Assembly (NCBI GenBank): GCA_964291315.2
Contig: OZ219752.1
Location: forward strand, 288,001-352,000
Length of the DNA: 64,000 nt
Direction of reading: 5' to 3'
Source: Candidatus Poribacteria bacterium
GTDB taxonomy: Bacteria > Poribacteria > WGA-4E > WGA-3G
Shown: positions 8,811 through 26,696 of the stretch, piece by piece
Numbering within the stretch: the stretch's first letter is position 1
Layout: every line of letters begins with the position of its first letter
Notes under the pieces: generated by a model
Told to the model about the DNA's origin: nothing
Database searches by the model: none
The model's input: only the letters and a program-made list of their open reading frames with translations
Made by a program: the position numbers and the translations under genes

Positions 8811-10214
8811 TTAATTCCTTTCCGCAAGTTCCGACTTTAATTCAGTCAGCGAGACTACTTGAGGTTTTGTCTGCGTGAATAAGGCAGAATCGAGCAGCTG
8901 TTTTGCGCGTTCAACATATTCAGTTTCTTTTTCACAGAGAAGAAAGTAGCGTTCAAGCATGAGCGCCACCTGTCCGACCGCTCCACTACCGCCGAATGGA
9001 TCAAAGACAAGGTCACCTTTAAACGAATAAAACCGTATGACCCGCATCGCCAATTCAGCCGGGAATACTGCCGGATGCACTTTATCCGTTGCAGGATTAA
9101 TATGCCATAGGTTCGTTTTTTCGTAGTCTCCCATTACTCTACTTGCGGTAACAGTTTCGTCATCGTATTGACGGATATTCCAATCAATCAGCTTATCTGT
9201 CTTTTTACGGTACACCATAACGTTTTCAGTGACGGCATTTGCCTTGTACGCCAATGGTTTCCGATGTTGAAAGAATCCGCCATTTCGATTTTTGGCTGCG
9301 TAGTCTGGTTTCGTCCAAACGATGTCGTCTATGAATTCCCATCCTATGCCGGTAAGGCGCGGGTGTATATCGTAGGGGATAGCATACCGCCTGCTGGCAT
9401 GTGCTCGGCTAATGCGAGGCACGATAACCGGCGATGTATTCAACACAAGGAACCGGCCCTCTTTGGTAATGCGATGCGTTTCCTTAAAAACAGCAGTTAG
9501 GAAGTCTAGATATGCCTCATAACTTTGATAAATTGTGTAATCACGAGCATTGTAATAGGGCGGCGATGTAAAAGTGAGATGAATGGACTCCCCCGGAATG
9601 AGTTTTAAGGCATCTTGCACGTCGGCACAAACAACCACGTTTTTAAGCGTATCTGGGCTTGTAGAATGATGGGGCTCTTTTTTTGGGTTTTGCGATTTTG
9701 CTCTTCTGTTTTTGTTTTTAATTTCACTGTTAAAATGCTCTCGAATTAGTTCGTTTGGGTGTTCGCATAGTGACTCTAACGCTGCTTGGACTTCAGGTTT
9801 TTCCTTGAAGTAGAGCAGGCCTCGGAGTCCTTGTAAAACAACTTTCGGATCGATATCAGTGAGGAATTCTGTCAAAATCGGTATTGCTTTCTGAGTTCTC
9901 ATGCGCCCGATAGCAGAAATCGCCTCACGGCGGACAAGCGTGTTTTGTTCGGTTTTAGCAAACGTGGAGAGTCTGTCTAACAAATTTTCATCTTTCAACT
10001 TCGCCATGTTCTTTATTGCAAGGCACCGGATTTTCGGGTTTGAGTGGCTGATTAAGGGCATCAGCAATTCTCTATCGAACCAATCTGGCAATTTGCCGAG
10101 GTTTTTAAGCGTAAAAAGTAGGTATTGCTCCTCGTTTGCCGGTGAGAGAGCGGTTCTGAAAAATGGGGAGTGCGGTTCTAATTTCTCTTGTTCAATATCC
10201 GCTTTAGTTAACAT
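8811..10214 (-). CDS. HEAT-repeat N-terminus fused to a beta-class amino-DNA methyltransferase (probably N4-cytosine)
   Basis: N-terminal HEAT-like helices (VRREAISAIGRM, DPKVVLQGLRGL); catalytic TSPPY precedes HPAVFP and the SAM motif DPFGGSG. Confidence 0.88.
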   Translation of the reverse strand: MLTKADIEQEKLEPHSPFFRTALSPANEEQYLLFTLKNLGKLPDWFDRELLMPLISHSNPKIRCLAIKNMAKLKDENLLDRLSTFAKTEQNTLVRREAISAIGRMRTQKAIPILTEFLTDIDPKVVLQGLRGLLYFKEKPEVQAALESLCEHPNELIREHFNSEIKNKNRRAKSQNPKKEPHHSTSPDTLKNVVVCADVQDALKLIPGESIHLTFTSPPYYNARDYTIYQSYEAYLDFLTAVFKETHRITKEGRFLVLNTSPVIVPRISRAHASRRYAIPYDIHPRLTGIGWEFIDDIVWTKPDYAAKNRNGGFFQHRKPLAYKANAVTENVMVYRKKTDKLIDWNIRQYDDETVTASRVMGDYEKTNLWHINPATDKVHPAVFPAELAMRVIRFYSFKGDLVFDPFGGSGAVGQVALMLERYFLLCEKETEYVERAKQLLDSALFTQTKPQVVSLTELKSELAERN

Positions 10215-11177: not shown

Positions 11178-13586
11178 ATGCTTTATAAGGGGTTACAACT
11201 CGATCGCTTTCAAGAGTCCGCAATTTCTGCTATTAACCGAGATACTTCAGTGATTGTCACTGCTCCTACAGGTGCGGGCAAAACTGTCATCGCTGAGTAT
11301 GCCGTTGAAAAGTGCATCGAGGAGGACCACCGCGTTATCTACACGGCGCCAATCAAAGCGCTCAGTAATCAAAAATATCGGGATTTTTACGCTCAATATG
11401 GAGACAAAATCGGTATTGTTACCGGGGATGTAGTGCTAAATCCGTATGCCCAGGTGCTGTTGATGACCACCGAAGTTTTCCGGAATTCTATTTTTGATGA
11501 GATTGAACGCTTGCGGGATGTCTCTTACGTTGTCTTTGATGAAATCCACTATATTAATGATATTGCGCGCGGAACTGTCTGGGAAGAGAGTCTCATTTTT
11601 GCACCTCAACATATCAAATTTGTCTGTCTGAGTGCTACGATCCCGAACATCCGTTCTTTCACAAGATGGATGCAGAGCGTCCGGGATATAGACATCGAGA
11701 TAGTTGAAGAGTTAAACCGGCCTGTACCTTTAAAGCATCAGCTCTATTTTAAAGATTACGGTATCGGTAGTCTAAAGGATATACCACGTCTCCGGAATAT
11801 AGCCCGACGTAAGGTCCGGAAACGCAATGCTGATTCCGATGGTGAGAACCCCCCGTCTCTACCGCCTGACTTTATAGAGTCACGTCTTATTCCACATCTT
11901 CGCCGTGAAAGACACCTTCCGTGTCTCTATTTCTGTTTTAGTCGAAAGGGGTGCGAAGAAAACGCCAAAGCGCTCGTCCATGGATCGCAACTTCAGCTAC
12001 TTGAAAGAAGTCAACAGACCCAGATTTTAAACCGGTTTGACGAGCTTTGTGCCCAATTTGACATCGTAGAGGAAAAGAAAATTGCCCAATTTCGCAGATT
12101 GATCCGTTGTGGGATTGCCTATCATCATGCGGGGATGCTGCCCACACTCAAAGAGGTTGTAGAACGCTTGTTCACCTCTGGATTGATCCAACTCCTCTTT
12201 ACCACTGAAACTTTTGCTGTCGGTATTAATATGCCTGCCTGTTCTGTCGTCTTTGATAGTCTAAAAAAATATGATGGAATCGGATTTCGACCCCTCAAAG
12301 CACGGGAATATCACCAAATGTCCGGACGTGCCGGTAGACGCGGCATTGACCCTATCGGCTATGTCTATGCCCAGATTGTACCCGAATATGCTGATTCAGA
12401 AGAAATTCGAAGCGTTGTTGCTGATAAGATAGAGCCTATCGAAAGCCAATTTAATCTCTCCTATTCCAGTATTCTCAATCTTTATCAGAGATATGGAGAG
12501 GGGATTTACGATATCTATACGATGAGTCTGAGCAATCACCAAAACTACGTGCGTGTCGCAAAACTCAACAAAGAAATTGAGACCAAAACAGAGAAGCTCC
12601 AAGGGCTACCTGAGCCTGAGTGTATCCATGAGGGGATCAATGGAATCAAACAGATTGGGCAACATTATCGCCAAAATAGAGAGCGTGAAAAGGAACGTCA
12701 ACGTTTATACGCAGAGCGGGCGCAAATCAGATCCGAAATTCGAAAAAAGAGGCGGAAAAAAGCGCAAAATAAAAGATTAAAGGCAGTTCAACGAAAGATA
12801 AACCTGTTGCAGCGAAGAGCGGAGCCGAGCCTTTGTGATGCCTGTCAACACTTAAACACATGCACTACAAGATATAAAGCCATCCGGAAAGAGGAGGTGC
12901 GCCTCCAAAAACTCAAAGAGAGAACGACACGCATTGAAAACAACCCGATGGCGCAAATAATAGCTCGTCTCAGAGTACTTAAGGAATTAGGTTACATTGA
13001 AGCCGAAGCGCTGCTGCCGAGGGGCAGTACGGCTGCACACATTTCTGGATACGAGCTCGAATTAACCCAGCTCCTCCTTAACGGATTCTTTGAGAGACTG
13101 ACGGAAGATGAAATTAACTGCCTCATAGTCGCAATCGTCTCTGAACCGCGTAAAGATGGGTATTTTAAGCCCCTCAAGGATCCACACTTGTTGGAGGTCC
13201 TCTATGCCGTCAACTCCGAAATTTCGTTCATCCAATCTTTAGAGAATAAACACGGCGTGACAGAAATCACCCCTCTCTTGGAACTACGGTTTTGCACGGC
13301 GATGCTGGCCTGGAGCCGAGGGTGTCGCTTCGACATGCTTGAAAAGTATGCGCGCGTGGATGCTGGCGATTTTGTCCGAACCTTTCGGCTCGTCATCGAT
13401 CAACTCCGTCAAATGTGCCGTGCAATGAGTGGACACACCGCTCTAGTTGATAAGCTCAACCGATGTATTGAAAAAATCAATAGGGACGTTGTCGACGCGG
13501 AACGCCAATTACGGATTACACAAGAAAATCTTGATGAAGCAGACAGTAAGGCTGCTGAAGAGACGTTACGAAAAAAGGCATTGTAA
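11178..13586 (+). CDS. Ski2/HelY-like SF2 RNA helicase
   Basis: APTGAGKT, YTAPIKALSNQK, FDEIHY, LSATIPN, TETFAVGINMPA and QMSGRAGRRG; DSHCT-like C-terminus. Confidence 0.93.
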   Translation: MLYKGLQLDRFQESAISAINRDTSVIVTAPTGAGKTVIAEYAVEKCIEEDHRVIYTAPIKALSNQKYRDFYAQYGDKIGIVTGDVVLNPYAQVLLMTTEVFRNSIFDEIERLRDVSYVVFDEIHYINDIARGTVWEESLIFAPQHIKFVCLSATIPNIRSFTRWMQSVRDIDIEIVEELNRPVPLKHQLYFKDYGIGSLKDIPRLRNIARRKVRKRNADSDGENPPSLPPDFIESRLIPHLRRERHLPCLYFCFSRKGCEENAKALVHGSQLQLLERSQQTQILNRFDELCAQFDIVEEKKIAQFRRLIRCGIAYHHAGMLPTLKEVVERLFTSGLIQLLFTTETFAVGINMPACSVVFDSLKKYDGIGFRPLKAREYHQMSGRAGRRGIDPIGYVYAQIVPEYADSEEIRSVVADKIEPIESQFNLSYSSILNLYQRYGEGIYDIYTMSLSNHQNYVRVAKLNKEIETKTEKLQGLPEPECIHEGINGIKQIGQHYRQNREREKERQRLYAERAQIRSEIRKKRRKKAQNKRLKAVQRKINLLQRRAEPSLCDACQHLNTCTTRYKAIRKEEVRLQKLKERTTRIENNPMAQIIARLRVLKELGYIEAEALLPRGSTAAHISGYELELTQLLLNGFFERLTEDEINCLIVAIVSEPRKDGYFKPLKDPHLLEVLYAVNSEISFIQSLENKHGVTEITPLLELRFCTAMLAWSRGCRFDMLEKYARVDAGDFVRTFRLVIDQLRQMCRAMSGHTALVDKLNRCIEKINRDVVDAERQLRITQENLDEADSKAAEETLRKKAL

Positions 13587-13922
13587 TGAAAAACGAATTG
13601 TATTACAATAGAGCACTTGCACACGGTGCTGTTTTATGCTCAAAACCGCGTAAGTCCGAAACGATCGGATAGCCAAGCATATCCTTCGTTTGATTGAACG
13701 GGTGATTACAGTGAGCAGAGAGGCGATGTTGATTGTTAGTCAATTGCCGGCATTTAGTAAGAAGAGGCATCGTCGGGTTTCCAGCTCACAATCTACCAGC
13801 AGCTTGCAAGGTGTATAGAAAATGTTACACTTTCCGCGAAATTGTTTTTTTACAACAAAAAAAAAGAATGCGGATTAACCCGCTTATTCACTGTGTTTTC
13901 TGCCCATAACACCTCTACTCCT

Positions 13923-13944
13923 AATGTTACACCAGTGTAACATT
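13923..13944. promoter_or_regulatory. Perfect palindrome, candidate operator
   Basis: AATGTTACAC-CA-GTGTAACATT; a third identical half-site AATGTTACAC at 13821-13830. Confidence 0.55.
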
Positions 13945-14074
13945 TTTACACGGAGAATTCATTACGCCGGTCTAAGGATTTCTGCTAACATGTCACGTCA
14001 GCGATCGGATTTGCTTCTCGCCATAGGTTGACCTATAAAAGTATTACATATTATACATAAAACAGTGTTTTTCC

Positions 14075-14103
14075 TTGACAGAAACTATATTATCTCATAA
14101 ATT
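14075..14103 (+). promoter_or_regulatory. sigma70 promoter upstream of the paralog array
   Basis: TTGACA-N17-TAAATT, ~135 nt upstream of copy 1. Confidence 0.65.
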
Positions 14104-14237: not shown

Positions 14238-14942
14238 GTGTTGAAGCAACTGTTATCAGACAAGCGTATTTTATGCGGTTTTATCTGTGTGTTGGTGCTG
14301 GTTGTTGGCGGCGTGGTATATGAGAGATCGGTGAAACAGCAAGCCCGCCGCGATATCCGACGCACTGAAAAGATCGTCAAAGAGAGGCAACGTCAGGAGA
14401 CCGGCTCTCAGCCCACAGAGAGTGGTCACTACCATTCGGATGGAACATATCACACAGGCTCACATGAAGCACCGGCCGGCACGACTGCCCCGTCAGAAGA
14501 GGGTAAGAAGAGCGGTATAGCTCCTGAGCGTGTGATATGGACAGGCAAGCCCCTGCGTGAGGTGTCCGCACCCGATCCGCTGAGTCCCGCGGAGCGCAAA
14601 GCACGCAATGCGAAGATCCAAGCACTCAATATACAGATACAGAAACTCAGAGGCGTAACAGAAGCAAAAACCGTCGAGTGTGATGAACGCATTAAGGCAT
14701 CTTCTAAAATCCTCAGGGAAAGGGAAGCAATCTCGGCAGAGCTGGACGCATTCCTCGTTGCAGAGGATCGCACTGCGGAAGAACAAGCACGCTTTGATGC
14801 ACTTTTAAAACAGTATTTAGAATTGCGCAACCTCTTTCATGAAAAGCACGCCATCGCTAAGCAAACGCTAGAAGAGAAGCGCACACTTCTTGAAAATCTC
14901 TATAGACTTGAAACGGATCGCGATGCGTTACGACGCCGATAA
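14238..14942 (+). CDS. Membrane-anchored His-motif coiled-coil protein, copy 1
   Basis: 234 aa; N-terminal TM, GHYHSDGTYHTGSH, Pro-rich linker, helical C-terminal half. Confidence 0.9.
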   Translation: MLKQLLSDKRILCGFICVLVLVVGGVVYERSVKQQARRDIRRTEKIVKERQRQETGSQPTESGHYHSDGTYHTGSHEAPAGTTAPSEEGKKSGIAPERVIWTGKPLREVSAPDPLSPAERKARNAKIQALNIQIQKLRGVTEAKTVECDERIKASSKILREREAISAELDAFLVAEDRTAEEQARFDALLKQYLELRNLFHEKHAIAKQTLEEKRTLLENLYRLETDRDALRRR

Positions 14943-14954
14943 GGAGGCATGTTG

Positions 14955-15002
14955 ATGAAGCACAGACGTATTGTAGTTGCAATAATATTAGGTTTGATGT
15001 AA
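14955..15002 (+). pseudogene. 15-codon stub MKHRRIVVAIILGLM* (vestigial signal-peptide start); also at 15760-15807, 16565-16612, 17368-17415 and 22859-22906
   Basis: GGAGG-N7-ATG begins 13 nt after the stop of the 234-aa gene, the same geometry as the start of the 1292-aa gene. Confidence 0.6.
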
Positions 15003-15042
15003 TGTAAAGTTTACGGACTTAACTGAAAAGGAGAAGGATGTA

Positions 15043-15747
15043 ATGTTGAAGCAACTTTTATCGGACAAGCGTATTTTAGGTGGGCTTATCTGTGTGTTGG
15101 TGTTGGTTGTTGCCGGCGTGGTATATGAGAGATCGGTGAAACGACAAGCCCGCCGGGATATACAGCGCCCTGAAAAGATCGTCAAAGAGAGGCAACCTCG
15201 GGAGACCGGCTCTCAGTCCGCAGAGAGTGGTCACTACCATTCGGATGGCACATATCACACAGGCTCACATGAAGCACCGGCCGACACGACTGCCCCGTCA
15301 GCAGAGGGTAAGAGGAGCCGTATAGCTCCGGGAGATGTGATATGGATGGGCAAGCCGCTGCGTGAAGTGTCAGCACCCGATCCGCTGAGTCCCGCAGAGC
15401 GCAACGCACGCAATGCGAAAATACAAACACTCAATACACAGATACAGAAACTCAAACGCATAACAGAAGCACAGACCAACGAGTGGTTGGAACACCTTAA
15501 AAAATATCCTAAAATCAGCCGAGAAAAAAGGGCAATCTTGGCTGAGAAGGATAAACTCCTCGCTGTAGAAGATTGGACTGCGGAAGAACGAGCCCGCTAT
15601 GACGCACTTTCAAAAAGGTTTGAAGAATTGAACGATCTAAGTGACAAAAGACGCGCTATCTCTGAGCAAATGCAGGAAGAGAACCTCCAGCTTCTTGAAA
15701 AGCGCGATGCCCTTGAAGCGGAACTGAGTGCCTTACGGCGCCGATAA
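15043..15747 (+). CDS. Membrane-anchored His-motif coiled-coil protein, copy 2
   Basis: 234-aa paralog with RBS (GGAG/AAGGA) upstream. Confidence 0.9.
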   Translation: MLKQLLSDKRILGGLICVLVLVVAGVVYERSVKRQARRDIQRPEKIVKERQPRETGSQSAESGHYHSDGTYHTGSHEAPADTTAPSAEGKRSRIAPGDVIWMGKPLREVSAPDPLSPAERNARNAKIQTLNTQIQKLKRITEAQTNEWLEHLKKYPKISREKRAILAEKDKLLAVEDWTAEERARYDALSKRFEELNDLSDKRRAISEQMQEENLQLLEKRDALEAELSALRRR

Positions 15748-15847
15748 GGAGGGATGTTGATGAAACACAGACGTATTGTAGTTGAAATAATATTAGGTTT
15801 GATGTAATGTAGCATTTACTAACTTAACTAAAAAGGAGAAGGATATA

Positions 15848-16552
15848 ATGTTAAAGCAATTGTTATCGGATAAGCGTATTTTATGCGGTTTTATCTGTGC
15901 TTTGGTGCTGGTTGTTACGTCGCTGGTGTATCAGGGATCTGTGAAACGGCAAGTCCACCGAGATATACAACGCACTGAAAAGATCGTCAAAGAGAGGCAA
16001 CGTCAGGAGACCGGCTCTCAGCCCACAGAGAATGGGCACTACCATTCGGATGGCACATATCACACAGGCTCACATGAAACACCGTCTGGCATGACTGCCC
16101 CGTCAAAAGAGGTTGAGAGGAGCGGTATAGCTCCTGAGAGTGTGATATGGACAGGCAAGCCGCTGCGTGAAGTGTCAGCACCCGATCCGCTGAGTCCTGC
16201 AGAGCGCAAGGCACGCAATGCGAAAATACAAGCACTCAATACTGAGATAAAGCAACTTGTGCGCGCAACGCGGGCACACATGCACAAGTATAATGAACAA
16301 GTTGACAAATATCCCAAAATCAGGCAAGAAATAAAGGCAATCTCGACAGAGTTGGACACTTTCCCCGCTGCAGAGGATCGCACTACGGAACAACAGACAC
16401 GCTATGACACCCTTTTAAAACGGTATTTAGAATTGGAGAACCTTGCTGACGAAGTTCTCACTATCGCAAATGAAATGCGGGAAGAGAGCCGCCAGCTTCT
16501 TGAAAATCTCGATCCACTTGAAACGGAGCTGAGTGCGTTACGGCGCCAATAA
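15848..16552 (+). CDS. Membrane-anchored His-motif coiled-coil protein, copy 3
   Basis: 234-aa paralog; identical to copy 6 after about residue 38. Confidence 0.9.
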   Translation: MLKQLLSDKRILCGFICALVLVVTSLVYQGSVKRQVHRDIQRTEKIVKERQRQETGSQPTENGHYHSDGTYHTGSHETPSGMTAPSKEVERSGIAPESVIWTGKPLREVSAPDPLSPAERKARNAKIQALNTEIKQLVRATRAHMHKYNEQVDKYPKIRQEIKAISTELDTFPAAEDRTTEQQTRYDTLLKRYLELENLADEVLTIANEMREESRQLLENLDPLETELSALRRQ

Positions 16553-16650
16553 GGAGGGATGTTGATGAAACACAGCCGTATTGTAGTTGAAATAATATTA
16601 GGTTTGATGTAGTCTATACTTCAGGAACTGAAAAGTAGGAGCATAACAAA

Positions 16651-17355
16651 GTGTTGAAGCGTCTATTATCAAACAAGCGGATTTTGGGTGTGGTTGTCTG
16701 TGCTTTAGTGCTGGTTGTTGCCGGCGTGGTATATGAGAGATCGGTGAAACAGCAAGCCCAACGCGATATCCGACGCACTGAAAAGATCGTCAAAGAGAGG
16801 CAACGTCAGGAGACCGGCTCTCAGTCCGCAGAGAGTGGTCACTACCATTCGGATGGCACATATCACACAGGCTCACATGAAGCACCGGCTGACACGACTG
16901 CCCCGTCAGAAGAGGTTGAGAAGAGCGGTATAGCTCCTGAGAGTGTGATATGGACGGGGAAGCCGTTGCGTGAGATTTCGGCACCCGATCCGCTGAGTCC
17001 CGCAGAGCGCAACGCACGCAATGCGAAAATACAAACACTCAATACACAGATACAGAAACTCAAACGCATAACAGAAGCACAGACCAACGAGTGGTTGGAA
17101 CACCTTAAAAAATATCCTAAAATCAGCCGAGAAAAAAAGGCAATCTCGGCAGAGCTGCGTGCACTCCGCGCTGCAGAGGATTGGACTGTGGAAGAACGAG
17201 CTCGCTATGATGCACTTTCAAAAAGGTTTGAAGAATTGGGCGATCTAATTGACAAAATTTTCTCCACCTCTGATCGGATGCAGGAAGAGAACCTCCAGCT
17301 TCTTGAAAAGCGCGATGCCCTTGAAGCGGAGCGCGATGCGCTGCGGCGCCGATAA
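16651..17355 (+). CDS. Membrane-anchored His-motif coiled-coil protein, copy 4
   Basis: 234-aa paralog; mosaic of blocks seen in copies 2, 5 and 7. Confidence 0.9.
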   Translation: MLKRLLSNKRILGVVVCALVLVVAGVVYERSVKQQAQRDIRRTEKIVKERQRQETGSQSAESGHYHSDGTYHTGSHEAPADTTAPSEEVEKSGIAPESVIWTGKPLREISAPDPLSPAERNARNAKIQTLNTQIQKLKRITEAQTNEWLEHLKKYPKISREKKAISAELRALRAAEDWTVEERARYDALSKRFEELGDLIDKIFSTSDRMQEENLQLLEKRDALEAERDALRRR

Positions 17356-17455
17356 GGCGGAATGTTGATGAAGCACAGACGTATTGTAGTTGAAATAATA
17401 TTAGGTTTGATGTAATGTAGAGTTTACGCACTTAACTAAAAAGGAGAAGGATATA

Positions 17456-18160
17456 ATGTTAAAGCAACTGTTATCAGACAAGCGTATTTTATGCGGTTTT
17501 ATCTGTGTGTTGGTGTTGGTTGTTGCCGGCGTGGTATATGAGAGATCGGTGAAACAGCAAGCCCAACGCGATATCCGACGCACTGAAAAGATCGTCAAAG
17601 AGAGGCAACATCGGGAGACTGGCTCTCAGTCCGCAGAGAATGGGCACTACCATTCGGATGGAACCTATCATACAGGATCACATGAAGCACCGGCAGACAC
17701 GACTGCGCCCTCAGGAGATGGTAAGAGGAGCAGTATAGCTCCTGAGCGTGTGATATGGACAGGGAAGCCGCTGCGTGAAGTGTCAGCACCCGATCCGCTG
17801 ACTCCCGCAGAGCGCAAAGCACGCAATGCGAAAATACAAGCACTCAATACACAGATACAGAAACTCAGACGCATAACACAAGCAAAAACCGTCGAGTGTG
17901 ATGAACGCATTAACGAAACTGATAAAACCCTCAGCGAAATCGATACAATCTCGGCAGAGCTGCGTGCACTCCACATTACAGAAGATTCGACTGCGGAAGA
18001 ACAAGCACGCCATGACGCACTTTTAAAACGGTATTTAGAACTGCACAACCTCGCCCGCGAAAGGAACGTCATCGCTAAGCAAACGCTAGAAGAGAAGCGC
18101 GCACTTCTTGAAAATCTCGATGCTCTTGAAGCGAAGCTTAGCGCTTTACGTGGTCGATAA
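17456..18160 (+). CDS. Membrane-anchored His-motif coiled-coil protein, copy 5
   Basis: 234-aa paralog directly upstream (12-nt gap) of the large Cys/His protein. Confidence 0.9.
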   Translation: MLKQLLSDKRILCGFICVLVLVVAGVVYERSVKQQAQRDIRRTEKIVKERQHRETGSQSAENGHYHSDGTYHTGSHEAPADTTAPSGDGKRSSIAPERVIWTGKPLREVSAPDPLTPAERKARNAKIQALNTQIQKLRRITQAKTVECDERINETDKTLSEIDTISAELRALHITEDSTAEEQARHDALLKRYLELHNLARERNVIAKQTLEEKRALLENLDALEAKLSALRGR

Positions 18161-18172
18161 GGAGGAATATCG

Positions 18173-21100
18173 ATGAACCGAAAATATACTGTAACCGTTT
18201 TTTTATGCGGTCTTTTTTGCCTCCACACAGTGGCGCTCGTGTTAGCTAACAATGAAGAGCGAACCCAATCGCAGAAAGATGCGGAAAGTAAATATGCCCA
18301 AGCACTTGATGGTTATCAAGACGCTCAAATTGCTAGGGGGAATGTTAAGATTGATGTTAGAGCTTTAGAAATAACTAGAGGATTGCTACAGAAGGAGATA
18401 AGTGATGAAAAGTTGGCAGCGTACGGTACGGTGCTCAACACGGCGGTGGCCTTGCTCACTGGGGCGTCTGCGGCGACCATAGCAACGAGAACGGCCGCAG
18501 CAATTGTCATTGGCAAGAGTGTTTCTGATATGGTCCGGACAATCCGTGACGCGCTGAAGGAGAATAAGAAAGCCACGCTTCATAAGTTGAAGCAAGGAAT
18601 GTATAACTTGGAGACAGAGCTAATAGAAAGGACGAAGGTGGTTCAAGATGAGGCAGCTGATGCTAACAGCGAGTTAGATGCTTGGAAAGCCGTAGAGCCC
18701 GGTGCGACGTATGACAAAAAGCCACTTGATGAACGGTATATTGATGTCGAAACAATGCATCCGGACTACACTCGGACGTTGCCGGATCCGCCGACGTATC
18801 GTTCCGACACGACGGAAACGATTGCGTGCCCTGCCTGTCGTGATCAGGTCAAGCCGCCATATTTGACAAAGATAGTGGTTTTATCCCCTGGTCTGATTAT
18901 GGGTATAGAGAAAACGGTCAAAAGGTATCGGGGTCATGAGGTCACGTGTGCAGAGACGCGTCACTCGACAGGCAAAGCGTGTGATGGTGAGTATTATAGT
19001 TGCTTGTCTCCGTATTCGAGTGCTTCCATAGTTTGCCCGAATGATGCGGATCACCGAGTTGTTGGCACGTGTGGTGAGCTCAAGGGCTCTAGGTTTAAGA
19101 AGCATGAGTATGCGAAGGGTTCGCCTGGGAATCATGGCAAGAAATTGAAGACTTGTGGTTCTATTGGTATGAGGTGGGAGCAATCCGATGGAACGGTCAC
19201 ACGGCAGGTATGTAAGATTAAGGTTTTTCCATGTGCGCCGGCGCATGGTCGGCATAATTGGGATCTGGTGTCTTTTAAGAAGCTATCACTGAATTTGGGT
19301 TCGGGCAGTAATTATATTTGTGCCAATTCCTCGTGTTCCATGAGCGGTAGCAGTTCATCGGGCGACGATGAAGACGACGAGGACGATACCGCTGACAATA
19401 CCCAGGGCGGTTCCGAATACGGTATGGGTATGGATGTGCGTTCGATAAACGGTAGCGGTTCGCCGAACGTCCCTCATCGAGAACAGGTTGCTCGAGCGTT
19501 AGCGTCTCGGGCGTGGAGAGCTTTACATTGGAACCACTCCGTCTCGCTAGGTATCTCTGCTGCACCGGAGCAGACTACCTCGCCGCTGAAGTTATCGTAT
19601 GAGCATCAGCGGGTGTGTTCAGAGGGGCATAAGTATTGGCTCTGTGATGCATCACAGAGGTTGGGGCATGCCCAATTGGTGTGTAGTCGTTCGGCGTGCG
19701 GGCAGGCGTTCACGCAGTGTTCTAACCACAGCTCAGCGTGTGTCGGGGGTTGGCATACCGGGGGTGCCGGTGATTTTTCCGAGACAGCAGATGCCTTGGC
19801 GGTGGTGTGTGGTAACCCGCACCGCAGGGATGGTGCGTGTGCATATGGGGGTCAGACCCCCTCGGTGAATGCTCATCGGACGACGTGTCTGGCAGGTCAT
19901 ACATATTGGTCGTGTAATGCGCAGGCGGTCCTAACGCATAGCAAACATACAGCCCGGCTTGTTACGTGTGGCAACTCGAACGCTGGGGAAGGAGCGTGTT
20001 CACAGGGGCGTCAAGCCGTCTCGTTGAATGCTCATCAGACGACGTGTCTGGCGGGTCATACATATTGGTCGTGTAATCCCGTGGCAAAACAGACGCATTC
20101 CTCTCACACCGCCTCATCCGGCGAAGGTACGGATGCTCCTAATACGGTTCCTGCTCGGGCTCCTGCACCTACTCCTGCGCGCCCTCCGACGGGAGATGGT
20201 GCGTGTGGCAACTCGAATGCTGGTGCGGGTGCGTGTTCTGTGGGAGGCAAGGCGCCGTCAGCGAATGCTCATCGGACGACGTGTCTGGCGGGTCATACGT
20301 ATTGGTCGTGTAATGCGCAGGCGGTTATAACGCATAGCCGACATACTGCGCCGCTTGTTGCGTGTGGCAACTCGAATGCTGGTGCGGGTGCGTGTTCACA
20401 GGGAGGCCGAGTCGTCTCGTTGAATGCTCATCAGGTTCGGTGTCTGGCGGGTCATACATATTGGTCGTGTAATCCCGTGGCAAAACAGACGCATTCCTCT
20501 CATACCGCCTCATCCGGCGAAAGTGCAAGTCTTTCTAAGATATCTTCTATGCTACTCCTGACGGGAGATGGTGCGTGTGGCAACTCGAATGCTGGGGATG
20601 GTGCGTGTTCTGCGGGAGGCAGGGCGCCGTCAGCGAATGCTCATCAGATTCGGTGTTTAGCAGGTCATACGTATTGGTCGTGTAATGCGCAGGCGGTTGT
20701 AATACATAGCCGACATACTGCGCCGCTTGTTGCGTGTGGCAACTCGAATGCTGGTGCGGGTGCGTGTTCTGCCGGAGGTCAAGCCGTCTCGTTGAATGCT
20801 CATCAGGCGCGATGTCTGGCGGGTCATACGTATTGGTCGTGTAATCCGTTAGCAAAACAGACGCATTCCTCTCATACCGCCTCATCCGGCGAAGGTACGG
20901 ATGCTCCTCATCTGGCTCCTGTGGCACCCGATCCTAAACCGTCTCGGGCGCCTGCACCTACTCCTGCGCGCCCTCCGACGGGAGATGTTGCGTGTGGCAA
21001 CTCGAATGCTGGTGCGGGAGCGTGTTCTGCGGGAGGCAGGGCGCCTTCAGCGAATGCTCATCAGGTTCGGTGTTTAGCGGGTCATACGTATTGGTCGTGT

Positions 21101-22051
21101 AATGCGCAGGCGGTTGTAAGGCATAGCCGACATACTGCGCCGCTTGTTGCGTGTGGCAACTCTAACGCTGGGGATGGTGCGTGTTCACAGGGAGGCCGAG
21201 CCGTCTCAGCCAATGCTCATCAGACGACTTGTTTAGCAGGTCATACATATTGGTCGTGTAATGCCCCATCGGTCCTAATGCATAGCAAACATACTGCCCC
21301 CGTGGTCTGTCCTGCGGATAGTTGGACGGATTGTGGTGGCACGGTATCACATGCGGCGACGTGTCCAGCGGGTCATTCGTATTACACGTGTAACTCATCG
21401 TCAGCGTCGACACATTCAGCACATACCGCTCCGCCGCCGCCACCCCCTCCGCCGGAGGATCCGGTTGTTTGTCCTGCGGATAGTTGGACGGATTGTGGTG
21501 GCACGGTATCGCATGCGGCGACGTGTCCAGCGGGTCATTCGTATTACACGTGTAACTCATCATCAGCGTCGACGCATTCAGCACATACCGCTCCGCCGCC
21601 GCCACCCCCTCCGCCGGAGGATCCGGTTGTTTGTCCTGCGGATAGTTGGACGGATTGTGGTGGCACGGTATCACATGCGGCGACTTGTGCGGCGGGTCAT
21701 TCGTATTATACGTGTAACTCATCGTCAGCGTCGACACATTCAGCACATACCGCTCCGCCGCCGCCACCCCCTCCGCCGGAGGATCCGGTTGTTTGTCCTG
21801 CGGATAGTTGGACGGATTGTGGTGGAAAGGTGTCACATGCGGCGACTTGTGAAGCTGGGCACGAGTATTATACATGTAACTCGTCAGCAGCTTCGGAACA
21901 TTCGGAACATACCGCTCCCGAACCGGCCTGCCCTGCAAGTAGTTGGACAGATTGTAGTGGGACCGGAACGGAGCATAAGGCGAAGTGTGGTAGAGGGCAT
22001 ACGTATTACACGTGCAATTCTTCGGCGCTTAAGAAACACTCCAAGCATTAG
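18173..22051 (+). CDS. Large secreted Cys/His-rich repeat protein (1292 aa) of unknown function
   Basis: RBS GGAGG; signal peptide (VLA|N); helical domain with a hydrophobic stretch; Cys/His-rich middle; acidic linker; 13 C4H4 modules. Confidence 0.9.
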   Translation: MNRKYTVTVFLCGLFCLHTVALVLANNEERTQSQKDAESKYAQALDGYQDAQIARGNVKIDVRALEITRGLLQKEISDEKLAAYGTVLNTAVALLTGASAATIATRTAAAIVIGKSVSDMVRTIRDALKENKKATLHKLKQGMYNLETELIERTKVVQDEAADANSELDAWKAVEPGATYDKKPLDERYIDVETMHPDYTRTLPDPPTYRSDTTETIACPACRDQVKPPYLTKIVVLSPGLIMGIEKTVKRYRGHEVTCAETRHSTGKACDGEYYSCLSPYSSASIVCPNDADHRVVGTCGELKGSRFKKHEYAKGSPGNHGKKLKTCGSIGMRWEQSDGTVTRQVCKIKVFPCAPAHGRHNWDLVSFKKLSLNLGSGSNYICANSSCSMSGSSSSGDDEDDEDDTADNTQGGSEYGMGMDVRSINGSGSPNVPHREQVARALASRAWRALHWNHSVSLGISAAPEQTTSPLKLSYEHQRVCSEGHKYWLCDASQRLGHAQLVCSRSACGQAFTQCSNHSSACVGGWHTGGAGDFSETADALAVVCGNPHRRDGACAYGGQTPSVNAHRTTCLAGHTYWSCNAQAVLTHSKHTARLVTCGNSNAGEGACSQGRQAVSLNAHQTTCLAGHTYWSCNPVAKQTHSSHTASSGEGTDAPNTVPARAPAPTPARPPTGDGACGNSNAGAGACSVGGKAPSANAHRTTCLAGHTYWSCNAQAVITHSRHTAPLVACGNSNAGAGACSQGGRVVSLNAHQVRCLAGHTYWSCNPVAKQTHSSHTASSGESASLSKISSMLLLTGDGACGNSNAGDGACSAGGRAPSANAHQIRCLAGHTYWSCNAQAVVIHSRHTAPLVACGNSNAGAGACSAGGQAVSLNAHQARCLAGHTYWSCNPLAKQTHSSHTASSGEGTDAPHLAPVAPDPKPSRAPAPTPARPPTGDVACGNSNAGAGACSAGGRAPSANAHQVRCLAGHTYWSCNAQAVVRHSRHTAPLVACGNSNAGDGACSQGGRAVSANAHQTTCLAGHTYWSCNAPSVLMHSKHTAPVVCPADSWTDCGGTVSHAATCPAGHSYYTCNSSSASTHSAHTAPPPPPPPPEDPVVCPADSWTDCGGTVSHAATCPAGHSYYTCNSSSASTHSAHTAPPPPPPPPEDPVVCPADSWTDCGGTVSHAATCAAGHSYYTCNSSSASTHSAHTAPPPPPPPPEDPVVCPADSWTDCGGKVSHAATCEAGHEYYTCNSSAASEHSEHTAPEPACPASSWTDCSGTGTEHKAKCGRGHTYYTCNSSALKKHSKH
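19808..21292 (+). repeat. Eight intragenic type-A modules C-x9-C-x11-H-x3-C-x3-H-x4-C-x7-H-x2-H, arranged as four pairs
   Basis: CLAGHTYWSCN occurs 8 times; Pro/Ala or Ser-rich linkers between pairs. Confidence 0.95.
21308..22048 (+). repeat. Five intragenic type-B modules (162-bp period, poly-Pro linkers)
   Basis: CPADSWTDC starts at 21308, 21470, 21632 and 21794, plus a divergent last copy; same H-x3-C-x3-H-x4-C-x7-H-x2-H core. Confidence 0.95.
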
Positions 22052-22064
22052 GCGATTTCTTTGA

Positions 22065-22098
22065 GAACAAAGCCTTGTTTTTCAGTAGGGCTTTGTTC
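22065..22098 (+). other. Stem-loop after the large gene (mRNA stabiliser or weak terminator)
   Basis: GAACAAAGCCTT...AGGGCTTTGTTC; no U-tract on the + strand. Confidence 0.5.
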
Positions 22099-22141
22099 AA
22101 AAGGAGGCAAAGCGAGTGCCTAATATTAAGGGGATGACGTA

Positions 22142-22846
22142 ATGTTGAGGCATCTATTATCAAACAAGCGGATTTTGGGTGTGGTTGTCTGTGCTTTAGT
22201 GCTGGTTGTTGCCGTCGTGGTGTATCAGGAAACGGTGAAACGGCAAGCTCACCGCGATATACAACGCACTGAAAAGATCGTCAAAGAGAGGCAACGTCAG
22301 GAGACCGGCTCTCAGCCCACAGAGAATGGGCACTACCATTCGGATGGCACATATCACACAGGCTCACATGAAACACCGTCTGGCATGACTGCCCCGTCAA
22401 AAGAGGTTGAGAGGAGCGGTATAGCTCCTGAGAGTGTGATATGGACAGGCAAGCCGCTGCGTGAAGTGTCAGCACCCGATCCGCTGAGTCCTGCAGAGCG
22501 CAAGGCACGCAATGCGAAAATACAAGCACTCAATACTGAGATAAAGCAACTTGTGCGCGCAACGCGGGCACACATGCACAAGTATAATGAACAAGTTGAC
22601 AAATATCCCAAAATCAGGCAAGAAATAAAGGCAATCTCGACAGAGTTGGACACTTTCCCCGCTGCAGAGGATCGCACTACGGAACAACAGACACGCTATG
22701 ACACCCTTTTAAAACGGTATTTAGAATTGGAGAACCTTGCTGACGAAGTTCTCACTATCGCAAATGAAATGCGGGAAGAGAGCCGCCAGCTTCTTGAAAA
22801 TCTCGATCCACTTGAAACGGAGCTGAGTGCGTTACGGCGCCAATAA
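22142..22846 (+). CDS. Membrane-anchored His-motif coiled-coil protein, copy 6
   Basis: 234-aa paralog. Confidence 0.9.
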   Translation: MLRHLLSNKRILGVVVCALVLVVAVVVYQETVKRQAHRDIQRTEKIVKERQRQETGSQPTENGHYHSDGTYHTGSHETPSGMTAPSKEVERSGIAPESVIWTGKPLREVSAPDPLSPAERKARNAKIQALNTEIKQLVRATRAHMHKYNEQVDKYPKIRQEIKAISTELDTFPAAEDRTTEQQTRYDTLLKRYLELENLADEVLTIANEMREESRQLLENLDPLETELSALRRQ

Positions 22847-23016
22847 GGAGGGATGTTGATGAAACACAGCCGTATTGTAGTTGAAATAATATTAGGTTTG
22901 ATGTAGTCTATACTTCAGGAACTGAAAAGTAGGAGCATAACAAAGTGTTGAAGCGTCTATTATCAAACAAGCGGATTTTGGGTGTGGTTGTCTGTGCTTT
23001 AGTGCTGGTTGTTGCC
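22256..23016 (+). repeat. 761-bp direct repeat identical to 15962-16722
   Basis: Offset 6294 bp; no mismatch found by eye. Confidence 0.9.
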
Positions 23017-23649
23017 TTCGTGGTGTATCAGGGATCAATGAAACAGCAAGCTCACCGCGATATCCGACGGACTGAAAAGAGCATCAAAGAGAGGCAACCT
23101 CGGGAGACTGGCTCTCGGTCTGCAGAGAGTGGGCACTACCATTCGGATGGGACATATCACACAGGCTCACATGAAACAACGTCTGGCACGACTGCTCCGT
23201 CAGCAGAGGGTAAGAGGAGCGGTATAGATCCTGAGCGTGTGATATGGACGGGCAAGCCGCTGCGTGAGGTGTCCGCACCCGATCCGCTGAGTCCAGCAGA
23301 GCGCAAGGCACGCAATGCGAAGATCCAAGCACTCAATACAGAGATCGAGCAACTCTGGCGCGTAATAGAGGCACAAACCGTCGAGTGGAATGAACACGTT
23401 GATAAATATCCTAAAATCAGCCGAGAAAGAAGAGCAATCTTAGCAGAGATGAACGCCCTCCCTACTGCACAGGATTGGACTGCGGAAGAACGAGCTCGCT
23501 ACAACGCACTTTCAAAAAGGTTTGAAGAATTGGACGATCTAAGTGACAAAATTTTCTCTACCTCTGATCGGATGCAGGAAGAGAATCGCCTGCTTCTTGA
23601 AAAGCGCGATGCCCTTGAAGCGGAGCTGAGTGCGTTACGGCGCCAATAA
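22945..23649 (+). CDS. Membrane-anchored His-motif coiled-coil protein, copy 7
   Basis: 234-aa paralog; the conserved spacer is absent after it. Confidence 0.9.
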   Translation: MLKRLLSNKRILGVVVCALVLVVAFVVYQGSMKQQAHRDIRRTEKSIKERQPRETGSRSAESGHYHSDGTYHTGSHETTSGTTAPSAEGKRSGIDPERVIWTGKPLREVSAPDPLSPAERKARNAKIQALNTEIEQLWRVIEAQTVEWNEHVDKYPKISRERRAILAEMNALPTAQDWTAEERARYNALSKRFEELDDLSDKIFSTSDRMQEENRLLLEKRDALEAELSALRRQ

Positions 23650-23706: not shown

Positions 23707-24267
23707 ATGGCTAATCAAGACTTCAATCTCACTGGTGCTATTAAAGTACGACCGGCTGAAGAAACCGATGCAGCTAATTTGCACATGTACTGCTTTCCTG
23801 AAAAAACCAAAAAGCAGGTCACTGAAGAGCTGAAAAACGATCTGAAAGCTGAAAATCAGACACACCGACTTGTTGCTGAATCGAGTGGATACCCTATTGG
23901 GCAGGTCACTGTCAAGCAAAACGTTGGTAACCCCGAGATCGCACAGGTTGGGAATCTTGCTGTTGCAGGGCCTTTTCGGCACTTCGGGGTCGCTAATTAC
24001 CTGATAGAGGCGGCTCAGGATGCTGCTGCAGCGAACGGTGTAAAATCGCTTCAAATAGAGTTATCCCCCTCCGATACGAGCGTTATTCAGCGGTATAAGG
24101 ACTGGGGGTTCTCCGAAAAACCGGTCGTTGTTCTCGAAAAGATACTCGGTGAATCAGAACCGGAGGCAGAGGAAGGAATACAGGTAGAGGCAGACGACAC
24201 CGACGAAGATGCCGAAGATGGAGCCTCAGCAGACGACGATGAACAACCCAGCCTGCTTGACTCCTAA
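23707..24267 (+). CDS. GNAT family acetyltransferase with acidic tail
   Basis: LAVAGPFRHFGVANYLI (acetyl-CoA loop) and YKDWGF. Confidence 0.85.
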   Translation: MANQDFNLTGAIKVRPAEETDAANLHMYCFPEKTKKQVTEELKNDLKAENQTHRLVAESSGYPIGQVTVKQNVGNPEIAQVGNLAVAGPFRHFGVANYLIEAAQDAAAANGVKSLQIELSPSDTSVIQRYKDWGFSEKPVVVLEKILGESEPEAEEGIQVEADDTDEDAEDGASADDDEQPSLLDS

Positions 24268-24282
24268 AAGGAGAATAGATTT

Positions 24283-25167
24283 ATGAACAGAATCTGGCTC
24301 CCGCTCCTCCTGGTCCTTTTTGTTGTCGGGTGCGGCACCCAAAACGAAAATCTTGCCAAGGGGAAGGAGTTGATTAAATCCGATAAACGCCGGAAAGAAG
24401 AACGGGCTGTTCGAGAATTTAAACTTGCACTCCAACAACCGATCGATAAGGCAGAATCACACTACCTGCTCGGACTTTACAATTCCCAGGAGTTTTACGA
24501 ACCGAATACCGCCGACCGGGAAGCGGCCTCAATCGCTGCGCGCGGGGGACACATGTTCCTTGCATATAAGGAAGAACCGCGTAAGTATCTTGAGATACTC
24601 ATTTTTGAGACGCTTCGCGATGACGATCTAGATATTCAAAACGTCGCGCTCGATGCTTTAACGCGCATATATAAAGAGGGCGATCGGAAACGACTGATCA
24701 GTCAACTTCAGAAGGCTATCAAATCCGGGGATAATCGCGATAGACACAGCGCACATTGGGTATTTGGACACCTCGGTAAGGAAGACCCCGGGGTGCTTGT
24801 CCCCATTTTGTTAGAACTGCTTGATCACGGCCGCGAAGAAACCCGCTTGAATGCCGTTAAGGCCCTTGGCGACATCGGGAGCGAAGAAGCAATTCCTGCC
24901 CTCGCTGCCCTGATTGACTCCGGCGCTGCTAGATGGAAACGCGACCGGGAGAAACCTGAAGTTCGTCAACTCGCTGTAGAAGCCCTCGGCAAAATCGGTG
25001 GTGCTGCTGTCCCAGAACTCATCAAAATTGTAGAGAATAAGGGGTCTTCGCTACGTGTCGACGCTATTCGCGCCTTAGCAACCCTCGGAGATGAAAAAGT
25101 CGTTGTGCCGCTCTTAGATGTTTTGAAAGAGCAGAGCAGCCGGGATGTGAGTATCCCCCTTAATTGA
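24283..25167 (+). CDS. HEAT-repeat lipoprotein
   Basis: Lipobox VVGC; repeats TRLNAVKALGDIG, VRQLAVEALGKIG and LRVDAIRALATLG. Confidence 0.85.
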   Translation: MNRIWLPLLLVLFVVGCGTQNENLAKGKELIKSDKRRKEERAVREFKLALQQPIDKAESHYLLGLYNSQEFYEPNTADREAASIAARGGHMFLAYKEEPRKYLEILIFETLRDDDLDIQNVALDALTRIYKEGDRKRLISQLQKAIKSGDNRDRHSAHWVFGHLGKEDPGVLVPILLELLDHGREETRLNAVKALGDIGSEEAIPALAALIDSGAARWKRDREKPEVRQLAVEALGKIGGAAVPELIKIVENKGSSLRVDAIRALATLGDEKVVVPLLDVLKEQSSRDVSIPLN

Positions 25168-25244
25168 AGGGACAGGCGTTATGGCACGCCCCGGGGCGCC
25201 TAATACCTTGATGAAACCTGCTATTCAATGGAAAGGACTGAAGT

Positions 25245-26696
25245 ATGGTAGGGAAAACAACACGCATGAAACAAATCTGCCGCTTCGCGGTTATTGTGCC
25301 CTTTTTCGCGCTTGTACTCGGACTGGTACTCGGATGTGACAACCGGTATTCCGATGAACGTTTGAAAATGGAGGTACAGCAGTTAGACAGTGACCTTATG
25401 AACCGTTGGGCAACAAGTGGTGTTATCGTTTTAAACACGACCCCCAACGGGCCGGCGAATAAGGCACAACTTGAACCTGGAGAACTGATCTCCTATGTCA
25501 TTGCGGAATATCCGGTCCAAAGCACAGACGACTTCAACAGGGCGCTCAAAAAAGCACTTGAGGGTGATAACAACCTCATTCTCTATTTGAAAGGCAAGCC
25601 ACCTATCCGTATTGCCCTTCGGAGACAAGGCGATAAGGTAGGCCTCAGCACTGAAGGAACGGGAACGGTGCGAGTCAAGGAAATTCAAGCTGGGACTCCT
25701 GCTGCAAATGCGGATATTCAGGTAGGCGATGTCGTTGAAAAAATTGTTGATGAGCGAAATATTTATGACCTTGCGGATTACAAAAAGACCTTGGGGAAAC
25801 TCTCCAAACACAAAATTACCTTCCGAACATCTGAATTAATAGGCGTGAAGATCGCTGCTGTGACGGCCCTTGGTGATTTGGGGGATGCCCGGGCGATTCA
25901 GCCGTTAATGGATCTCTTCAAAAATAGTGCAGAGTTCTCGGTTCGCAAAGCCGCCATCATCAGCCTGCAACGGCTCGTTGAATTAAGCATGCTGAACAAC
26001 CTTTTCCACGAATTTCAACGGGCGAATGTGAATCAGCTCCCCGCTGATAGTATGCATGTGAGCCAATTGGAATCTGCTGCTATCCTGGGCTTACTCACTG
26101 TTGATAGAGCCGGAAATACTGCTACACTCAAAGAGCCTTTCGGAACACAATTCAGACACAGGTCAGAAACACTCTATCGAGAAATCAACGGGGGACAGCT
26201 TGCTGAGATCGCGCAAGAATACATTCAGATGCATGTAGAGCCTGAACAAGAGATTCGGCGTGCGTGTCTCGCGATACTCGGAGTCCTCAAACCGGTTTCG
26301 GCAATTGAGGATCTCGTTGTTGTCCTCGAAAGCCCGTCAGAAATTCCCGGCATCCGTTTCCAAGCGGGACTTGCCCTCAGTCAGATTGGTGAGCCTGCTG
26401 TTGATGCGCTCATCGCGGTTTTTGAAAATAAAGATACCAGCACAAAAGATATCGCGGCTTCCGCCCTCGGCAGGATCGGTGGAACTAAGGCGCGAGATCG
26501 ATTGATTGATGAGCTTGAGACAACTCATCAACCTGCGATTCGACTAACGCTTGTTGACGCGATTTCCAAAATCGGTGATGCCCCGTCTATACGGGCACTT
26601 GAACGCCAACGTGAACGATACCAACAGAATGCTGATCCTGGCCTGCGTATCTTTCTAGATGAGGTTTTTAGAAACTTAGCCAGTGGATCCATGTAA
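25245..26696 (+). CDS. PDZ plus HEAT-repeat lipoprotein (start may be 25266)
   Basis: Lipobox-like VLGC; PNGPANKAQLEPGELI and AGTPAANADIQVGDVV (PDZ-like); HEAT repeats. Confidence 0.8.
   Translation: MVGKTTRMKQICRFAVIVPFFALVLGLVLGCDNRYSDERLKMEVQQLDSDLMNRWATSGVIVLNTTPNGPANKAQLEPGELISYVIAEYPVQSTDDFNRALKKALEGDNNLILYLKGKPPIRIALRRQGDKVGLSTEGTGTVRVKEIQAGTPAANADIQVGDVVEKIVDERNIYDLADYKKTLGKLSKHKITFRTSELIGVKIAAVTALGDLGDARAIQPLMDLFKNSAEFSVRKAAIISLQRLVELSMLNNLFHEFQRANVNQLPADSMHVSQLESAAILGLLTVDRAGNTATLKEPFGTQFRHRSETLYREINGGQLAEIAQEYIQMHVEPEQEIRRACLAILGVLKPVSAIEDLVVVLESPSEIPGIRFQAGLALSQIGEPAVDALIAVFENKDTSTKDIAASALGRIGGTKARDRLIDELETTHQPAIRLTLVDAISKIGDAPSIRALERQRERYQQNADPGLRIFLDEVFRNLASGSM

Follow-up and report, generated by a model that had tools for sequence, protein, structure and literature searches.

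A putative effector–partner cassette of Poribacteria with a seven-gene array of membrane-anchored partners

In Staphylococcus aureus, TslA is a lipase toxin of the type VII secretion system with an N-terminal polymorphic domain, preceded by tandem, recombining genes for the DUF576 immunity lipoproteins TilA (PMC10730906). The same reversed gene order is found in the X-Tfe/X-Tfi pairs of the type IV secretion system of Xanthomonadales (PMC6536674), while tandem immunity genes are represented by the recombining esaG arrays (PMC9484751) and the homogeneous polyimmunity loci (PMC3482391), and transmembrane (TM)-anchored partners by Lif/LipB and CpaB, chaperones of type II secretion systems (T2SS; PMC4713064). 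Described here is a locus, termed S/L, in a stretch of 64,000 nucleotides (the window; assembly GCA_964291315.2, contig OZ219752.1, positions 288,001 to 352,000, forward strand) from a Candidatus Poribacteria bacterium. Poribacteria are dominant, uncultured sponge symbionts (PMC3909097). In this locus, seven genes for small TM-anchored proteins (S1–S7) are arrayed around one gene for a large secreted protein (L), and they represent a genuine, probably undescribed modular effector–partner system, amplified here to a seven-gene bank.

By gene logic, S/L resembles the group formed by TslA, X-Tfe, esaG and the polyimmunity loci, but by sequence it is a member of none of them. Shared with TslA/TilA are the N-terminal polymorphic effector domain, the membrane-tethered partner encoded directly upstream, beside that domain, and the variable numbers of non-identical, recombining paralogs, but the sequences are unrelated, L combines a Sec-type signal with Cys/His repeats in place of an LXG-like tail, S carries a TM anchor plus a His motif in place of a lipobox, the domains that swap into L are of at least three unrelated types, and the S/L host is a diderm with a T2SS. 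Shared with X-Tfe/X-Tfi pairs are a variable N-terminal domain (envelope-attacking in X-Tfes, putatively so in L) joined to a common C-terminal domain, an immunity gene (putative in S/L) that is usually upstream and the dispersal of many pairs per genome; X-Tfes, however, rely on XVIPCD and VirD4 and have lipoprotein X-Tfis as partners, whereas in S/L one finds a signal peptide and a Cys/His tail, a front end common to the S proteins and, as a neighbour, a GspC-like gene. The esaG/tipC arrays and polyimmunity loci have in common with S/L tandem non-identical paralogs that contain conserved blocks, are mosaic and are set apart by near-constant spacers, with fragments of toxin genes lying between the copies, but those arrays and loci follow C-terminal toxins, bear no sequence relation to S/L, and encode immunity that is proven there and putative for S. 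Lif/LipB and CpaB are alike in gene adjacency, N-terminal TM anchor as well as a C-terminal domain specific for one secreted client; no arrays or orphans are described in the available part of PMC4713064, and S matches no chaperone family. No curated family or description of an S/L system was found in the searchable literature, a mention in supplements or subscription papers being possible; the word 'toxin' is absent from the text of PMC3909097, PMC8546597 and PMC5087111, and 'Poribacteria' from PMC3482391 within 300,000 characters.

A class-matched variable block in S and L

In S, a conserved anchor and His motif precede a variable C-domain; in L, a signal peptide is followed by a variable N-domain and then by Cys/His repeats. 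Sequence comparison identifies the S C-domain and the L N-domain together as the variable unit, contiguous in DNA, class-matched and exchanged as a block between conserved flanks, because similarity of the L N-domain tracks the S C-domain and not the S front end, while both flanks change. The survey covered 60 fetched regions and the window and gave 91 S genes with the motif (17 motif-less genes were set aside), most of them with a signal-like start in the gene directly behind. S genes were dropped where a further S came next, or a gene that was distant or unrelated, or the end of the contig, and one pair was added by hand, which left 62 S–partner pairs in 35 single-linkage clusters. Among these pairs, similar L N-domains had similar S C-domains too in 40/45 cross-genome comparisons (permutation control: mean 2.5, maximum 10 in 1000), and 50 comparisons showed similar S only, many of them with weaker L similarity. 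The 90 most similar S front ends were matched in L class only 7 times, and both types of S front end were found inside single classes. In a held-out test, 40 further regions yielded 30 pairs, of which 16 were assignable and 15/16 had the predicted S class. A profile of one L class with a beta domain (beta class) found members in 45/112 genomes and 6/6 genera, with the same S class upstream in 29/30 of the best beta-class loci and in 23/23 loci not used for the profile.

Full-length homologs beyond the window numbered two for S and eight for the L N-region, and with E 0.001 as the threshold the S front-end profile (anchor and His motif) had matches in 100/112 family genomes; with the threshold at E 1e-6, matches were found in 88/111 other family genomes vs 1/64 other genomes of the phylum. 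Judged by these profiles, the window locus is one instance of a cassette typical of one uncultured Poribacteria family. The profile search for linked small and large genes that the sequence-only reading had proposed recovered conserved pairing and further arrays. Among related loci, the best carry the label Candidatus Poribacteria, and the named relatives are annotated 'hypothetical protein'. Separately, the genome of the window contains a second array (G000:C4:1675163-1687544), in which at least six S-like genes of the His-less kind occur together with secreted genes that are short and Cys-poor.

Several traits of polymorphic toxin systems are present: a conserved trafficking part (signal peptide and Cys/His tail) with interchangeable helical, beta and M15 N-domains; a partner gene beside L that is specific to its effector domain (the 40/45, 15/16 and 29/30 above); and orphans and arrays, namely the window array with its stub open reading frames (ORFs), S arrays of other classes in genomes G120 and G121 (regions L104, L262 and L263), and an orphan class-0 S in G120. 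The L class of this orphan was not found in that 2-contig, 95%-complete genome by a search of less than full sensitivity, which in G014 also overlooked a short fragment already known. The canonical order, with a C-terminal toxin and a downstream immunity gene, is reversed, as in TslA and X-Tfe.

Among relatives, an enzymatic signature is recognisable in the M15 class, which has a motif of peptidoglycan peptidases and in which 6/8 scanned members match Peptidase_M15_3, one of them above the cut-off (L263, 24.7 bits vs 23.2), with PHROG matches to peptidases and endolysins. GYR, SxHxxGxAxD-like and HVH residues are invariant in 7/7 aligned members and are candidate zinc ligands. M15 membership, resting on the Pfam match and on the zinc-binding His/Asp/His motif of M15 peptidases, holds for this class in relatives and not for the window L. 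In the S partners of M15-class L proteins (L263:3503-6270, L060:7410-8237, L056:6367-7248), a short His/acidic loop is in common and varies among paralogs; that it is a zinc-blocking inhibitory loop is speculation. The beta class is modelled at pLDDT 88 as an Ig-like sandwich with a long hairpin, and some members have FN3-like tails. The ESM Atlas gave no usable match for the beta domain, and aerolysin-type toxins were not listed in fold searches with the beta model, a result that does not exclude them.

The seven-gene array and its L protein

The layout claimed from sequence alone, five 234-residue paralogs, a 1292-residue L and two more paralogs between a helicase and a GNAT gene, is borne out by the ORF list of the window: S1–S7 are seven co-oriented ORFs of exactly 234 residues each, and the array and L are bounded by a DEAD-box helicase gene (11178-13586) and a GNAT gene (23707-24267). 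The motif claims hold equally, as the seven paralogs align without gaps, with an invariant His motif, GHYHSDGTYHTGSH, and a conserved WxGKPLRExSAPDPL linker. In S1, the predicted TM anchor lies at residues 11-28, the His motif at 63-76, the conserved linker at 99-131 and a variable coiled coil at 132-234. Pairwise identity is 64-83% in 20/21 pairs and 94% for S3/S6.

Behind each of S1, S2, S3, S4 and S6 stands a 17-codon stub ORF with its own ribosome-binding site (RBS); the stubs are hydrophobic and occupy the position where L begins behind S5. The one behind S1 is a probable truncated 5' end of another L allele. The array is also mosaic, the nearest paralog changing along each S gene, and the 761-bp identical tract shared by S3 and S6, which extends into S4 and S7, reads as a recent duplication or gene conversion. 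The sequence-only reading had noted neither the stubs nor this tract, nor the hairpin that follows L.

Four of five listed runs were compared with the locus, all in the form of contigs, at 88% likeness. In run X1, which probably is the source sample and hence is not independent, contigs cover 30/30 bins of the locus, and with 0-3 differences they cross the joins upstream-S1, S5-L, L-S6 and S7-GNAT; no contig spanning the entire array was among those listed for the runs compared. The concern that the array is an assembly artefact is eased to that extent, and the other outcomes named as fatal to the sequence-only reading, homologs unlinked elsewhere or families already characterised, did not materialise. 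One X2 contig passes from the start of the first stub (14959) into L-like sequence (18251), another joins S6-like to S5-like sequence (a recombinant S), and L-like contigs in X1 and X3 omit 18951-21732. Because joints seen at 88% likeness may derive from other organisms, these variant contigs are taken only as hints of differences between strains and of a stub with which another L allele begins.

The window L contains 72 Cys and 72 His, and its 13 repeats follow the pattern C-xn-C-xn-H-x3-C-x3-H-x4-C-xn-H-x2-H. The AlphaFold2 model of the N-domain (9 sequences, mean pLDDT 61) places helices at model residues 8-49 and 93-150, block pLDDT being mostly 73-94 and confidence low in the hydrophobic tip, which is a candidate membrane-inserting part of the modelled hairpin. 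Foldseek placed the alpha pore-forming toxin ClyA at E 1.3-1.6, which is chance level and does not exclude a ClyA type. As the sequence-only reading had held, neither protein belongs to a recognised family: window S and L matched no Pfam, NCBIfam or PADLOC family at cut-off and gave one marginal PHROG match. PDB sequence searches with the L repeats, A7, A9 and A11 returned nothing under E 0.1, the best ESM Atlas score with the window L domain was 0.78, and a metagenome scan for L confirmed 0/185 candidates. Homology between S and the L N-domain was ruled out (hhalign probability 0.5).

Functional readings of the cassette

On balance, the likelier account is that S/L consists of a polymorphic secreted effector and a bank of cognate immunity proteins anchored in the inner membrane, in reverse architecture. 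L would cross the inner membrane by Sec and exit by type II secretion, often assisted by a cassette-encoded GspC-like protein, and its N-domain would attack the envelope of competing cells: peptidoglycan in the M15 class, and probably membranes in the hairpin class of the window. S would face the periplasm and bind the L N-domain, its His motif probably serving the Cys/His tail by metal loading or holding, so that S may be chaperone and immunity protein in one. The bank may have grown by tandem duplication of S together with the first codons of an L allele, the copies then being shuffled by recombination into six distinct coiled-coil variants, and variant S proteins would cover the variant L proteins of neighbouring strains. 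The putative toxin/immunity array of the sequence-only reading has gained real though partial support from relatives: S and L are linked and paired by class elsewhere, further arrays and orphans exist, L decays where S does not, and one L class has the M15 motif. The surface metal-loading module offered there as an alternative fits the tracking of the Cys/His tail by the S His motif and is probably a component of the effector–immunity account rather than an alternative to it. Beyond the reach of that reading were the family-wide spread, the unit of S C-domain and L N-domain, and the GspC-like gene that usually comes third.

With regard to export, home-made profiles found a GspC-like short TM protein near 34/51 loci and an ECF sigma gene upstream of 10/51, neither of them at the window locus. 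The GspC-like profile has 1-17 matches in each of 171/176 genomes of the phylum; in the genome of the window, a T2SS-type operon has no such match inside, and two lie elsewhere, the second at G000:C4 3106174. In three regions (L041:11740-12291, L042:11158-11712, L128:7829-8503), an L N-domain is fused to the C-terminal part of a GspC-like gene, apparently by recombination.

Several observations weigh against an effector with immunity partners. The window L N-domain had no Foldseek match under E 0.5 and a best VIA Z of 10.1, to generic helical hairpins, with no toxin fold identified; the beta class matched generic Ig-like sandwiches only (best Z 6.6); a recognisable enzyme is present in one L class alone; and no nuclease, lipase or similar toxin domain was found in the other partners scanned. 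Charges flanking the TM helix are ambiguous in 20 S sequences and do not fix the side of the C-domain. The pairing counts come from related genomes, which are non-independent samples, though pairing still holds across genera while both flanks change. S was truncated in 0/84 cases vs 24/61 short partner ORFs (10 of the 24 being truncated members of classes with full-length examples), which speaks for immunity, but assembly error in L and its greater length may contribute to the difference; in a second batch, 4/46 S were short, 2 of them at or near contig ends. Across six S genes (S6 omitted as a near copy), residues 132-176 had a dN/dS of 1.0, vs 0.11 for the His motif and 0.13 for residues 99-131. 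Together with the mosaic ancestry this counts for immunity, but dN/dS is nowhere above 1, so that relaxed selection would explain it no less than diversifying selection. The window locus has no GspC-like gene, and GspC-like scores elsewhere (T2SSC E 6e-5, 23.4 bits, cut-off 27; GspC_delta E 1e-4, 22 bits, cut-off 150) fall far below the family cut-offs. Adjacency to the effector gene and an N-terminal TM domain, both found in S, also define T2SS chaperones of the Lif/CpaB type. In the beta class, by our own calls with three loci excluded, the S His motif is present in 16/19 loci with Cys-rich L tails vs 0/8 with Cys-poor tails, an association that Fisher p 7e-5 overstates since the losses fall in about two clades. 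Such a link between motif and tail is not expected of a pure immunity protein; immunity-like and chaperone-like patterns would both fit an S that holds and neutralises L in the periplasm.

These last points speak for S as a dedicated, Lif/CpaB-like T2SS chaperone, or a metal loader, anchored in the membrane, with a non-toxic L serving adhesion, nutrition or sponge-host interaction and an array reflecting dosage amplification or drift. S has the chaperone anatomy given in the available part of PMC4713064 (adjacent gene, N-terminal TM anchor, C-terminal domain), most loci have a GspC-like neighbour, 14/14 His-less S relatives in the genome of the window lack a Cys-rich neighbour, and the beta-class L is an Ig-like sandwich, in some cases with FN3-like tails. 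This alternative is nonetheless unlikely: one chaperone per client should do, yet seven diverged copies stand beside one L, orphan S and S kept beside a broken L are unexpected, and variation is concentrated in the coiled coil. A self/non-self or signalling pair, in which L is a polymorphic identity ligand and S an allele-specific receptor that would act through an ECF sigma factor or in kin recognition, no cell being killed, is quite unlikely, since the approximately 5-14 residues ahead of the S TM helix leave little room for an anti-sigma domain, the sigma gene is missing from most loci and from that of the window, and an M15 peptidase suits attack better than signalling; it draws on the strict lock-and-key S/L pairing, the ECF sigma genes upstream of some loci and the absence of a known toxic fold from most L classes. 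As for the copy number itself, the 761-bp identical tract, the lack of an array-spanning contig and a dN/dS not above 1 are what one would expect if the copies were a neutral gene accordion or if the repeat were partly misassembled, only a single S–L pair then mattering; against seven intact 234-residue frames with motifs under purifying selection, unique joins bridged in X1 and the arrays that other S classes form independently in G120 and G121, this is very unlikely.

The effector–immunity account can be widened to a family-wide conflict system of Sec/T2SS effectors with N-terminal warheads of new fold and a zinc-finger-like tail, with its own GspC paralog as substrate adaptor, a bifunctional S that loads metal and neutralises, and block swap by recombination; in this full form it is doubtful. 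Dozens of matched effector–partner classes with new domains would be a testable candidate for competition and diversification of Poribacteria in the host, and the beta fold is confidently modelled without a close solved relative. The cassette GspC-like paralogs would bear on how type II secretion selects substrates, and an export chaperone and immunity factor in one protein, if true, would link two classes now kept separate.

Coordinates and neighbouring features

Table 1. Features of the S/L locus, in window coordinates
Feature	Position	Strand	Basis or remark
Sigma-70-like promoter candidate	14075..14103	+	upstream of array; 10/12 consensus match
S1	14238..14942	+	alignment, ORF list
Stub ORF after S1	14949..15002	+	17 codons, RBS
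S2	15043..15747	+	ORF list, alignment
Stub ORF after S2	15754..15807	+	
S3, 94% identical to S6	15848..16552	+	ORF list, pairwise identity
761-bp tract	15962..16722	+	identical to 22256-23016
Stub ORF after S3	16559..16612	+	
S4, mosaic (closest paralog shifts along gene)	16651..17355	+	
Stub ORF after S4	17362..17415	+	
S5, directly upstream of L, presumed cognate partner	17456..18160	+	12 bases from S5 stop to L start; S directly precedes L in relatives
L, 1292-aa secreted protein	18173..22051	+	ORF list
L predicted signal peptide	18173..18247	+	judged by hydropathy and sequence
L variable N-domain, long alpha-helical hairpin	18266..18694	+	AlphaFold2
Ala/Thr/Leu-rich hydrophobic hairpin tip	18404..18520	+	19-residue hydropathy 1.45; low model confidence
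13 Cys4His4 repeats (8 long type, 5 short type), Pro-rich linkers	19808..22048	+	
13-pair hairpin after L	22065..22098	+	z -3.87 for 22052-22141; 1/200 shuffles folds as well
S6	22142..22846	+	ORF list, alignment
Stub ORF after S6	22853..22906	+	
S7	22945..23649	+	ORF list, alignment

The promoter candidate is weak (14 such sites found vs 10.8 expected), and neither promoter nor terminator counts rise above those of shuffled sequence; the hairpin after L is a possible terminator or processing site. Approximately 145 bp upstream of the array (13805-13948) recur as a 78%-identical copy at G000:C4:1615150-1615294 and give loose ends in contigs; this may be a repeated regulatory element. Around the locus, two adjacent HEAT-repeat ORFs at 24283-26696, the second with PDZ domains, are possibly one split gene, and a 467-residue ORF at 8811-10214 on the minus strand presumably encodes HEAT repeats fused to a DNA methyltransferase, judged by its motifs.

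Elsewhere in the same genome, G000:C4:3083604-3110538 is a long run of genes of no known family for TM-anchored and signal-peptide proteins, the second GspC-like match among them. At G000:C4:3184339-3187722 (L265:2340-5723), a complete 16S rRNA gene is followed by a 99.75%-identical 806-bp duplicate of its 3' half, either a real insertion or an assembly artefact; the 14-kb region had no 23S match, and His-less S-like and small secreted genes lie between and around the two 16S copies.

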